Positions 27,854 to 29,654 of a stretch of DNA of 64,000 nucleotides are shown piece by piece (position 1 is the first letter of the stretch; each line of letters begins with the position of its first letter). The notes under the pieces are model-generated. The model made no database searches and was not told the origin of the DNA. It was given only the letters and a program-made list of their open reading frames with translations. The stretch is from Clostridioides phage LIBA2945. The stretch is taken from sequence record MF547663.1, one strand, 5' to 3'. The position numbers and the translations under genes are program-made.

Positions 27854-29332
27854 ATGGTTGAAGAGTTTAAAATTAAAACCAGTATTGAACTTGATGACAA
27901 AGAAGCTAGAGAAAAATTAGAAAAGTTAAAAAATAGTGGTCAAGATAAGCCTATTAAATTAAATTTGAAAATAGGTGAATTAGATAAGTTATCACAGCAA
28001 GCAGAACAACTAAAAGGCATATTTAATAAAGCTTTCAAGATTGATAGTACTGCTTTAAGTAATTTAAAGCAAATTGAATCTACTATGAAAGAAATAAATA
28101 AACTAAGTAGAAGAAGTCAAGATAGTTTACTTGGTGGTGGCTCTGGAAATACAGGAAATATAAATAATGAACAACAAGATTTAATAAGACAATATAAAGA
28201 AATTTCAAATGTTGTGTCTAGGCTTCAAAATCAGATGAGGACAGGTTTAGGGGATAGTTCAATTGAAAGAACAACAGAGCAAATTGAAAGATTAAAAAGA
28301 CAATTGGATTCAGTGTATGCACAAATGAATTCATCATCTCAAGCTAGAATGGATATGTTTGATGCTTCAAGAGCAACAAGAGATTTAGCTGATATGAATA
28401 GAAGTCTTTCAAGAATAGAAGATATGGCAACACAAGCATCTGCTAGGCTTAATGGATTAGGCGATAATATAGATACAGATAAAGTAAATAGACTTAGGAA
28501 TGAGTTACAAGAATTAAAACAGATAGCTAGTAGAAATATAGATTTAAATCTTGATGTAGGTAATATAGTTAATAGAATACAAGAGATAAATCAAGAAGTT
28601 AGAAATTTAGAAAGAGTTGATAGCTTAAGGTCTAATTTCAGCAGAATAGAAGATTCTATTAGACAGGCATTTGGGAATGAGAGAGTTGAAGCTTTTAGAC
28701 GTTCTTTAGAGCAACTTCAAGGTTCGGCAGGAAATCTAAATGGTGATTTTAACAATATATTTGATAGACTAACAAGAGAAATGAGAGACGCGAGACAAGA
28801 AGCTGAAAGATTAAATAATACAGTTTCAAAGGGTGGAGGATTTTTTAATGATTTTTATTCATCTATAGCATCATATTCGATTGGAGATATGTTAGGAGAT
28901 GCTTTAACTGACGGAATTAGGTCTATGAAAGATGTTATATTAGAGCTTGATAGCTCTATGACTGACCTTAAAAAGGTTGCAGAACCAACAGATATTGATA
29001 GCACATCTGAGTTAGATAAGATAAGGGAAAAAGCAATACAAACAGCTAAAGATGTAGGAATGAGTGCATCACAAGTTCAAGAATCAATAGCATCTTCTTT
29101 ACAAGCAGGAATTGGAGGTATGCAAGAAAGTATTGCTGCTGCAAGACAATCAATGATACTTGCCAATGTAGGGGACATGGATGTTGAAGGTGCTTCTTCA
29201 GCAGTAAACACAATAATAAATGGATTTAGAATTGAACCTTTAAAAGAAATGCAAGTGCAGGTTGGAAATACTACAAAGAAAACAACAGAATTAACTGCTG
29301 CAATGGATATGCTAAATTGTTTGGCGTGTTAG
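27854..29332 (+). CDS. tail tape measure protein, 5' part (exon 1-like)
   Basis: Long Q/R/E-rich coiled coil followed by a TP901-type core region (ANVGDMDVEGASSAVNTIINGF...TELTAAMDMLN). Stops abruptly with an out-of-context CLAC*. Confidence 0.8.
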   Translation: MVEEFKIKTSIELDDKEAREKLEKLKNSGQDKPIKLNLKIGELDKLSQQAEQLKGIFNKAFKIDSTALSNLKQIESTMKEINKLSRRSQDSLLGGGSGNTGNINNEQQDLIRQYKEISNVVSRLQNQMRTGLGDSSIERTTEQIERLKRQLDSVYAQMNSSSQARMDMFDASRATRDLADMNRSLSRIEDMATQASARLNGLGDNIDTDKVNRLRNELQELKQIASRNIDLNLDVGNIVNRIQEINQEVRNLERVDSLRSNFSRIEDSIRQAFGNERVEAFRRSLEQLQGSAGNLNGDFNNIFDRLTREMRDARQEAERLNNTVSKGGGFFNDFYSSIASYSIGDMLGDALTDGIRSMKDVILELDSSMTDLKKVAEPTDIDSTSELDKIREKAIQTAKDVGMSASQVQESIASSLQAGIGGMQESIAAARQSMILANVGDMDVEGASSAVNTIINGFRIEPLKEMQVQVGNTTKKTTELTAAMDMLNCLAC

Positions 29333-29603
29333 ATAGAAATATCTAATATTATGAGGGGGCAAAATCGGTGAAGACTGAGATGTTACCACCGAGGTAAATT
29401 AAAGAATTAAAAGACTTTAATCACCGTAACGCATAGGAAATGAACCTATGCTATTTTTATGTTTAAAATAGCATAGAATATAATTTTCCCACGAGTGTCC
29501 TCCATCTGAACAAGTAATCTTGAAGATGAAAATATATGCTGAACTTACATGAATAAGAAATGTAAGAACTACAAGATAAAAAGCTTGTAGGGTAACAATT
29601 TGA
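29333..29603 (+). other. structured intervening sequence splitting the TMP ORF (candidate group I intron, about 270–290 nt)
   Basis: Multiple stops in all frames. Several perfect hairpins: ttagata-GAAA-tatctaa (GNRA tetraloop), gcatagg-aaatgaa-cctatgc, cttacat-gaataagaa-atgtaag, cggtga/tcaccg. The TMP frame resumes right after an in-frame TGA at 29601. Confidence 0.45.
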
Positions 29604-29654
29604 AACTATGCAGGGAATAATTATGCAATTGGAACAGCAGGTGTTGCCGAAGCG

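Follow-up and report, generated by a model that had tools for sequence, protein, structure and literature searches.

A Putative Twort-like Group I Intron within the Tape-measure Gene of Clostridioides Phage LIBA6276

The DNA analyzed here, a stretch of 64,000 nucleotides (nt) from Clostridioides phage LIBA2945 (MF547663.1) that we call the window, is 100% identical, at equal coordinates, to Clostridioides phage LIBA6276 (MF547662.1), whose 134-kb genome is phiCD211-like (PMC12671070, PMC5786514). Its tape-measure protein (TMP) gene is split, and the two halves are annotated in the GenBank record of LIBA6276 as separate coding sequences (CDS), a “hypothetical protein” and an “ATPase.” As an earlier note on this DNA had claimed, the gene is interrupted: the first open reading frame (ORF1) stops within the conserved core, and the TMP reading resumes in a different frame that opens directly after a TGA at 29601–29603. 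The interruption had been placed at 29320–29620 with a length of ∼270–290 nt; we find it to be an insert of exactly 289 nt at 29314–29602 (Table I). This insert is, with a probability of roughly 93% on the sequence evidence set out below, a group I intron lacking an ORF, of the Twort-like type (subgroup IA), lying in the conserved core of the TMP gene.

The limits of the insert were set by combining related sequences with the rules for group I introns. Exon 1 terminates at U29313 (...GATATGCU), and the insert begins AAAUUGUUUGGCGUG..., ends ...GGUAACAAUUUG with G29602 as its last nucleotide, and carries stops in all three forward frames, which confirms for that strand the earlier claim of stops in all frames. 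The upstream exon does end in U, as had been proposed, at U29313 and not after ...CTAAAT. The protein junction is ML/NYAG (a slash within a site marks the junction), not MLN/NYAIG; the residues AGNN had been dropped from the quoted resumption. Removal of the insert in silico yields an ORF of 2,526 amino acids (aa) without internal stop, in good agreement with the product of ∼2,500 aa foreseen if splicing occurs, and reads ...TAAMDML/NYAGNNYAIGTAGVAEAMK across the junction. The predicted ligated RNA or DNA junction is GATATGCT/AAACTATG (in longer form ...GGATATGCT/AAACTATGCAGG), and the predicted junction-spanning TMP peptide is TTELTAAMDMLNYAGNNYAIGTAGVAEAMK.

The spliced reading is one that protein families recognize. 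PF10145 (PhageMin_Tail) covers the spliced region in a single stretch from profile position 1 to 201 of 201 with 92.7 bits, whereas the unspliced halves match it in pieces: exon 1 covers profile positions 1–76 with 26.9 bits, which is below the cut-off, its match terminating at the exon end, and exon 2 covers positions 83–201 with 52.6 bits. TIGR01760, the tape-measure domain, matches the spliced product at 82 bits. In a tblastn search the junction region was covered to at least 80% in one place by 81 phage records. When six phiCD211-like TMP cores were aligned, MDML/NYAGNNYAIGTAG matched LDLSNYAGNNFAITTG (...LDLSNYAGNNFAITTGD...) without a gap in the four phages whose gene is not interrupted at that point. 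Precise removal of the insert thus restores the frame and makes the gene co-linear with its uninterrupted homologues.

A natural empty site was found in IMG/VR, where the predicted junction 20-mer GATATGCTAAACTATGCAGG occurs once, in locus L130; the genome-contig collection gave zero matches to this 20-mer. L130 is 97% identical to window positions 27805–29316 and 98% identical to 29603–30712, and these matches adjoin each other, overlapping by 3 nt, the AAA common to the intron start and the start of exon 2, indicating that L130 lacks exactly 289 nt. The AAA ambiguity allows four boundary placements, and only 29313/29314 with 29602/29603 gives both a 5' U and a 3' G. The L130 ORF runs on from the equivalent ATG through the junction, and over 856 aa its protein is 98.6% identical to the TMP spliced in silico; the locus contains zero matches to the family covariance model R1 described below. 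From this empty site we conclude that the gene is otherwise continuous and that the insert is a separate element of 289 nt, mobile in recent times.

In the insert the helices P2 to P9.1 follow the order that is canonical for group I introns, with P3 and P7 as a pseudoknot. With respect to the criterion for subgroup IA2, extra helices P7.1 and P7.2 between P7 and the 3' strand of P3, P7.1 is present, covaries at 5 of 5 pairs and holds a nested P7.1a; a separate P7.2 was not identified. A P7.1 with a P7.1a extension is typical of subgroup IA. The junction CACGAGUGU between P7.1 and the 3' strand of P3 is nearly invariant across the family and may form a tertiary contact or replace P7.2. The guanosine-binding pair is presumably G29431-C29539, because this is the first G-C pair of P7 that is kept in the alignment to Twort. 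The insert RNA folds with −77.9 kcal/mol (z = −6.84), a value equaled by none of 200 shuffles. Hairpins of the terminator-like kind also exceed chance: 6 were counted in 27500–30500 against 0.8 expected, three of them within the insert. For P4, a pairing of CGGUG with the second CACCG (29422–29426) was also considered and rejected: PJN02 and other relatives support the first CACCGA, and the second belongs to P6.

The proposed structure is supported by covariation. A search pattern derived from the conserved 3' part recovered at least 120 loci in IMG/VR, and 26 ORF-less members were aligned without fitting to a covariance model (alignment A2). In A2, 97.2% of 1,568 pair cells were standard over 63 pairs, the P3/P7 pseudoknot included, compared with 36–42% when the 3' partners were slid by 1–3 columns and 72.8% in shuffles. 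Both sides changed in 42 of the 63 pairs, and the covariation score was 0.625 versus 0.168 in shuffles, none of 500 reaching the observed value. The five P7 pairs are invariant in the 26 sequences, as one would expect of the catalytic core. A covariance model, R1, which was made from A2 and treats P7 as unpaired, gave a single match in the window, at 29302–29614 with 272 bits, and at least 131 matches in 100 IMG/VR loci at E ≤ 1e-5. In an alignment of 120 distinct sequences (A3), 95.9% of cells were paired and 53 of 56 pairs changed on both sides; being fitted to the model, A3 leans toward the proposed structure.

P1 could be followed in the relatives as well. A partner of 3–7 base pairs (bp) ending in U lay no more than 45 nt upstream of the varying guide in 19 of the 26 members, examples being GCGGU/GCCGC, GCGAU/GUCGC, UGGU/GCCA, and GUGCU/GGCAC. 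The other seven, which have the guide GCCGYY and include PJN02 and L103, had no P1 partner within 45 nt upstream; in these the 5' exon, or an ORF, is probably situated at a greater distance upstream. Four IMG/VR loci (L069, L040, L091, and L062) each hold four to six R1 matches within a few kilobases, which suggests genes or regions dense in introns of the R1 family.

R1 also connects the insert to known introns. The model matched the three introns of Twort orf142 at 49.7, 40.8, and 14.1 bits (E ∼1e-14, 1e-12, and 5e-4); these were not in the R1 training set, and their record, AF132670, notes “contains group 1 introns.” In the R1 alignment to them, with E values from 1e-12 to 1e-15, P2, P3, P4, P6, P8, P9, P9.1, and the ...GUAACA..UUG tail are in register. 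The Twort introns I1–I3 and the LIBA6276 intron share the helix order P1-P2-P3-P4-P5-P6-P7-(P7.x)-P3'-P8-P7'-P9-P9.1, the sequence ...CUGAAC-P9-AA/AG-P9.1-G(G)UAACA..UUG of the tail, and similar J6/7 (AAC) and J8/7 segments; both are ORF-less, measure ∼250–300 nt, and lie in a phage structural gene. They differ in that the LIBA6276 intron has a single nested P7.1/P7.1a, unlike the peripheral-helix arrangement of Twort, and in P7, which is GCAUA/UAUGC in LIBA6276 and GACUA/UAGUC in Twort, two adjacent pairs being swapped in a compensatory manner and the first G-C pair kept. The Twort orf142 introns were reportedly shown by Landthaler and Shub in 1999 to be self-splicing members of subgroup IA2, and Golden et al. 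are said to have determined the crystal structure of the Twort I2 ribozyme in 2005. The Twort ribozyme crystal structure is cited in a review (PMC3984707).

Several results weigh against a group I intron at this site. Rfam RF00028 (Intron_gpI), which the earlier note had proposed for this segment, found no match in the whole window at its gathering threshold of 50 bits. At E ≤ 10 on 29200–29750 (551 nt), RF00028 was again absent and only chance-level small nucleolar RNA and microRNA models appeared; read to the letter, this is the outcome that the note had said would count against its proposal. The same RF00028 model detected the Twort introns at 64–101 bits and, when given a short stretch, another phiCD211 intron (family B, below) at 41.7 bits. 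The P7 sequence GCAUA/UAUGC departs from the usual GACUA/UAGUC. Finally, GCATAGG-N7-CCTATGC followed by TATTTTTATG at 29431–29451 resembles an intrinsic terminator and lies inside the element.

With respect to Rfam, searches of four related loci at E ≤ 1 returned nothing, and RF00028 did not match the phiCD211 copy of the LIBA6276-type intron. Because the RF00028 controls work, the negative result is specific to the LIBA6276-type family, and because RF00028 finds the Twort introns to which R1 links that family, we read it as a limit of the model. The LIBA6276-type family is beyond the reach of the current Rfam model, and the family-specific evidence overrides the negative. What the sequences show is a group I anatomy with covariation, an exact insertion polymorphism, an ORF that becomes co-linear again once the insert is removed, and a link to the Twort orf142 introns through the covariance model. 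Each sequence-level feature by which the proposed small ORF-less group I intron could be tested was found, namely the U·G pair in P1, P10, the pseudoknot, covariation, the terminal G, a stop-free spliced product co-linear with uninterrupted homologues, the empty allele L130, and the link to Twort.

The terminator-like hairpin bears on the possibility that the insert is an ordinary intergenic spacer with an intrinsic terminator between two tail genes. In the phiCDIF1296T record the stretch homologous to it carries the annotation “terminator.” However, the 5' arm GCAUA is invariant and pairs as P7 with a UAUGC ∼100 nt downstream, most members of the family lack the partner of this hairpin, the whole 289 nt are absent from a 97%-identical allele, and a single domain is divided between the two ORFs. 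We therefore regard a spacer with a terminator as extremely unlikely. The hairpin at 29431–29451 competes with P7 and P7.1.

This hairpin was one of three that had been singled out before. All three exist, and two of them are native helices, ttagata-GAAA-tatctaa corresponding to P2 and cttacat/atgtaag to P9, whereas gcatagg/cctatgc appears in the minimum free energy fold. We rejected the latter as a native helix: the GCAUAG arm is invariant, GCAUA pairs as P7, and most relatives lack the strand opposite that arm. The comparative assignment gives GCAUA to a P7 strand and the remainder of the region to P7.1/P7.1a.

The absence of an Rfam match, the two separate CDS in GenBank, and an in-frame ATG at 29655 would also suit the relic of a mobile element, dead or unable to splice, with TMP made as two polypeptides or the gene being a pseudogene in a defective episome. 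We consider this very unlikely. Every helix of the family consensus is intact, and the score of 272 bits is among the highest of the members; copies 96–99% identical, with intact exons, are kept in loci L094 and L014. Moreover, the split bisects one Pfam domain, conserved residues would be lost on a restart at 29655, and the closest intron-less allele (L130) encodes one continuous protein.

The group I family to which we assign the insert has members in other phages with a split TMP gene. Staphylococcus phage 6ec and Streptococcus phage Javan355 carry the same ribozyme family (R1 142 and 153 bits, respectively), also in a split TMP gene, and differ in holding an endonuclease ORF of ∼250 aa before the 3' strand of P4 (an HNH ORF in 6ec and a “homing endonuclease” in Javan355), whereas the LIBA6276 copy has no ORF. 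As the endonuclease ORFs of the relatives examined lie just upstream of the P4 3' strand, L5 is likely their insertion point. Bacillus phage PJN02 (L002) contains a full-length member at 2184–3271 (R1 279 bits), which is directly preceded by two kinds of annotated ORF, “mobile intron protein” and “endonuclease,” and is followed by a Dda-like helicase gene; this endonuclease ORF may occupy the P1 loop or a position upstream of the ribozyme.

That phages harbor group I introns in structural genes, tail genes included, is well known (PMC3706429, PMC3984707), and introns located in tail and capsid genes of phages undergo efficient splicing in late expression (PMC3706429). The cluster J mycobacteriophages, which belong to phages of an unrelated host phylum and are compared here by description, likewise have group I introns in tail genes, interruption of TMP not being stated in that source (PMC3706429). 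In the searchable literature we found no report of an intron in LIBA or phiCD211-like phages, the LIBA6276 intron included.

Other kinds of insertion were weighed against these data: the insert might be a piece of a group II intron, a miniature inverted-repeat element, or the remnant of an IStron. C. difficile does harbor IStrons, chimeras of a group I ribozyme and an insertion sequence (IS) element, and in those of the CdISt1 type the ribozyme is fused on its 3' side to transposase genes of the IS200/IS605 type. The LIBA6276 insert, however, lacks a 3' part derived from an IS element, and its terminal G is immediately followed by exon 2. It measures 289 nt and has no ORF, it matched no Rfam group II or other family, and its covarying structure is that of a canonical group I intron and can be aligned with the Twort introns. 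Any of these alternatives is scarcely credible.

If the group I intron functions as its anatomy predicts, the TMP gene would be transcribed as a single pre-mRNA, in which the intron would fold as a P1–P9.1 ribozyme. Exogenous guanosine would dock at the G-C pair of P7 and attack after U29313, held in P1 by the guide GGCGUG. The freed 5' exon would then attack after the terminal G29602, with P10 (GUUU/AAAC) aligning the 3' exon, and ligation would give ...GAU AUG CU/A AAC UAU... and one TMP of 2,526 aa. That the LIBA6276 intron actually splices is thus what its sequence leads us to infer.

The TMP core of the large phiCD211-like phages of C. difficile proved to be a hotspot of intron insertion. 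The insert is 89–92% identical in phiCD211/phiCDIF1296T, pCD1602_4, and ES-S-0173-01, phages whose flanking coding DNA has no blastn match to the window, and the occurrence of copies of ∼90% identity between unmatched flanks indicates that the intron is mobile. By blastn, identities of 70–77% were also found with parts of Bacillus, Staphylococcus, Streptococcus, and crAss-like phage records, several of these parts adjoining annotated homing endonucleases. Insertion sites were derived from deduced exon junctions, all of them stop-free and co-linear. Three intron families, of which the LIBA6276 intron represents family A, use at least nine sites within ∼135 codons of the TMP core (Table I); R1 at E ≤ 10 matched no copy of family B or C. 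Among alleles that are ∼97% identical, the intron load rises from 0 in L130 to 1 in LIBA6276, 2 in L094, and 3 in L014.

In phiCD211 (NC_029048.2), families A and B stand in tandem. An “Intron_gpI” misc_RNA is annotated in this record at 28891–29156, in the same TMP gene and the same conserved domain as the LIBA6276 intron, but it is the family-B intron, lies at another site (KTIG/INMSG), and has no R1 match. It is the only intron annotated there, the LIBA6276-type copy 33 nt upstream being left out. The P2 of that copy reads UUAAUUA/UAAUUAA. The two A copies of pCD1602_4 are ∼74% alike in the core and have P1–P2 and 3' ends in common with other copies, which suggests recombination between introns.

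Table I. Features of the split TMP gene, the candidate intron, and the TMP hotspot (strands of a helix are separated by a slash; covariation refers to alignment A2)
Feature	Record	Coordinates	Strand	Remarks
ORF1	Window	27854–29332	+	492 aa; ends ...TELTAAMDMLNCLAC and stop (ORF list, translation)
Second TMP frame	Window	29604–35723	+	Reads NYAGNNYAIGTAGVAEAMKRGG...
TMP exon 1	Window	27854–29313	+	486 codons + 2 nt; ends ...GAU AUG CU
TMP exon 2	Window	29603–35723	+	1 nt + 2,039 codons + stop; starts A AAC UAU GCA...
Insert (candidate intron)	Window	29314–29602	+	AAAUUG...ACAAUUUG
P1	Window	29308–29313 / 29323–29328	+	UAUGCU (last 6 nt of exon 1) / GGCGUG; U29313·G29323 wobble at 5' splice site
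Internal guide sequence	Window	29319–29328	+	GUUU for P10 + GGCGUG for P1 (direct reading, P1 scan)
P10	Window	29319–29322 / 29603–29606	+	GUUU / 3' exon AAAC
P2	Window	29329–29346	+	UUAGAUA-GAAA-UAUCUAA; 6/7 pairs change both sides
P3	Window	29355–29358 / 29499–29502	+	GGGG / CCUC; 4/4 pairs change both sides; 99% of cells paired
P4	Window	29365–29370 / 29387–29392	+	UCGGUG / CACCGA; encloses P5; 98.7% of cells paired for 29365–29392
P5	Window	29373–29375 / 29382–29384	+	GAC / GUU, short
P6/P6a	Window	29393–29425	+	GGU..AUUAAAG-loop-CUUUAAU.ACC; 8/10 pairs change both sides; 99.2% paired
P7	Window	29431–29435 / 29535–29539	+	GCAUA / UAUGC
P7.1	Window	29436–29440 / 29485–29489	+	GGAAA / UUUCC
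P7.1a, optional	Window	29446–29457 / 29465–29476	+	Nested in P7.1; absent in many relatives
P7.1–P3 3' junction	Window	29490–29498	+	CACGAGUGU
P8	Window	29503–29528	+	CAUCU...AGAUG, inner CAAG/CUUG; 95% paired; 2 pairs change both sides
J8/7	Window	directly before P7 3' strand (29535)	+	AAAAUA
P9	Window	29544–29566	+	CUUACAU / AUGUAAG; 5/7 pairs change both sides
P9.1	Window	29569–29590	+	CUACAAG / CUUGUAG; 6/7 pairs change both sides; then tail GGUAACAAUUUG
Terminal G (omega-G)	Window	29602	+	Most aligned relatives end ...YUG
Family A	LIBA6276			Site ML/NYAG
Family A	phiCD211, pCD1602_4			Site QNA/EKVG
Family A	ES-S-0173-01; second, 74%-identical copy in pCD1602_4			Site AEAAA/GKY
Family B	pCD1602_4			Site NYAG/NNF
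Family B	phiCD211			Site KTIG/INM, 33 nt after the family-A copy
Family C	ES-S-0107-01			Core GUUCAACGACUAGG...GAUAUAGUC; site TTGD/VGAAL
Family C	AR1086-1			Site AEAI/SGK
Family A plus family C	L094	Extra intron 4888–5177		C at AEAM/KRGG, between window 29656 and 29657 (∼96–98% identical exons)
Family A, family C, A-like	L014	Extra introns 1979–2268, 2377–2675		C at AEAM/KRGG; A-like copy more diverged, at EKVG/NGLK near window 29764 (∼96–98% identical exons)
Families A and B in tandem	phiCD211 (L001, NC_029048.2)	A 2991–3278, B 3312–3586		33-nt mini-exon 3279–3311, EKVGTALKTIG
Families B, A, and second A	pCD1602_4 (L006, CP069348.1)	2081–2355, 2491–2776, 3020–3287		In one TMP gene

The three main family-A sites have only ...GCU/RRAA in common, which agrees with the shortness of the guide pairings in P1 and P10. 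P1 measures 6 bp at the first site, 5 bp at the second, and 3 bp at the third, and P10 measures 4 bp at each, its guide being GUUU where the 3' exon is AAAC versus UUUU where it is GAAA. The match between guide and exon may not be a specific adaptation, since L090 has a guide of the LIBA type. One possible, if doubtful, account of this pattern is ectopic transposition without an endonuclease, in which the guide would direct reverse splicing, followed by reverse transcription and recombination. For the reverse-splicing route in general there is no direct evidence, only circumstantial cases in rDNA (PMC3984707). A trans-acting endonuclease or illegitimate recombination explains the multi-site pattern equally well.

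ORF-less group I introns are known to be mobilized by free-standing endonucleases, which is termed collaborative homing (PMC3984707). Such introns resemble the LIBA6276 intron in being ORF-less yet mobile between genomes and sites. They differ in that collaborative homing uses a free-standing endonuclease, whereas none was found among the seven largest ORFs near the LIBA6276 TMP gene: neither the intron nor those ORFs (19376–27792 and 37583–39298) matched an endonuclease family. Three of the seven encode proteins without a Pfam match, and the other four encode an MmeI-like enzyme, a CI-type repressor, an antirepressor, and a SHOCT-domain protein.

The MmeI-like enzyme is a 1,107-aa ORF at 19376–22699 (+) of the MmeI/Eco57I restriction-modification type (PF07669, 145 bits), which also has MmeI N-terminal, helicase-spacer, and methyltransferase domains. 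Downstream of it lie the CI-type repressor at 22795–23244 (−) and the antirepressor at 23505–24548. On the minus strand, a 72-aa ORF at 29463–29681 extends across the intron's 3' half and the beginning of exon 2 and is most likely spurious.

For LIBA6276, these data correct the annotation: the “hypothetical protein” and the “ATPase” are the halves of one predicted TMP of 2,526 aa. The length of a tail set by TMP usually follows a rule of 0.15 nm per residue, by which a tail of ∼380 nm would be predicted. The R1 family was undetected by RF00028 in both copies tested and has members in Staphylococcus, Streptococcus, Bacillus, and crAss-like phage records; as Rfam misses the family, phage genes split in this manner will go on being recorded as pairs of genes. 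The element itself is of a kind known in phages, and what it adds is the corrected annotation, a large family missed by Rfam, and a hotspot with multiple sites and multiple alleles. With 0–3 introns per near-identical allele, the TMP core is a natural system for the movement of ORF-less introns. If ectopic reverse splicing is true, it would be natural evidence of endonuclease-independent group I transposition, an idea that the alleles with 0, 1, 2, and 3 introns would make testable.

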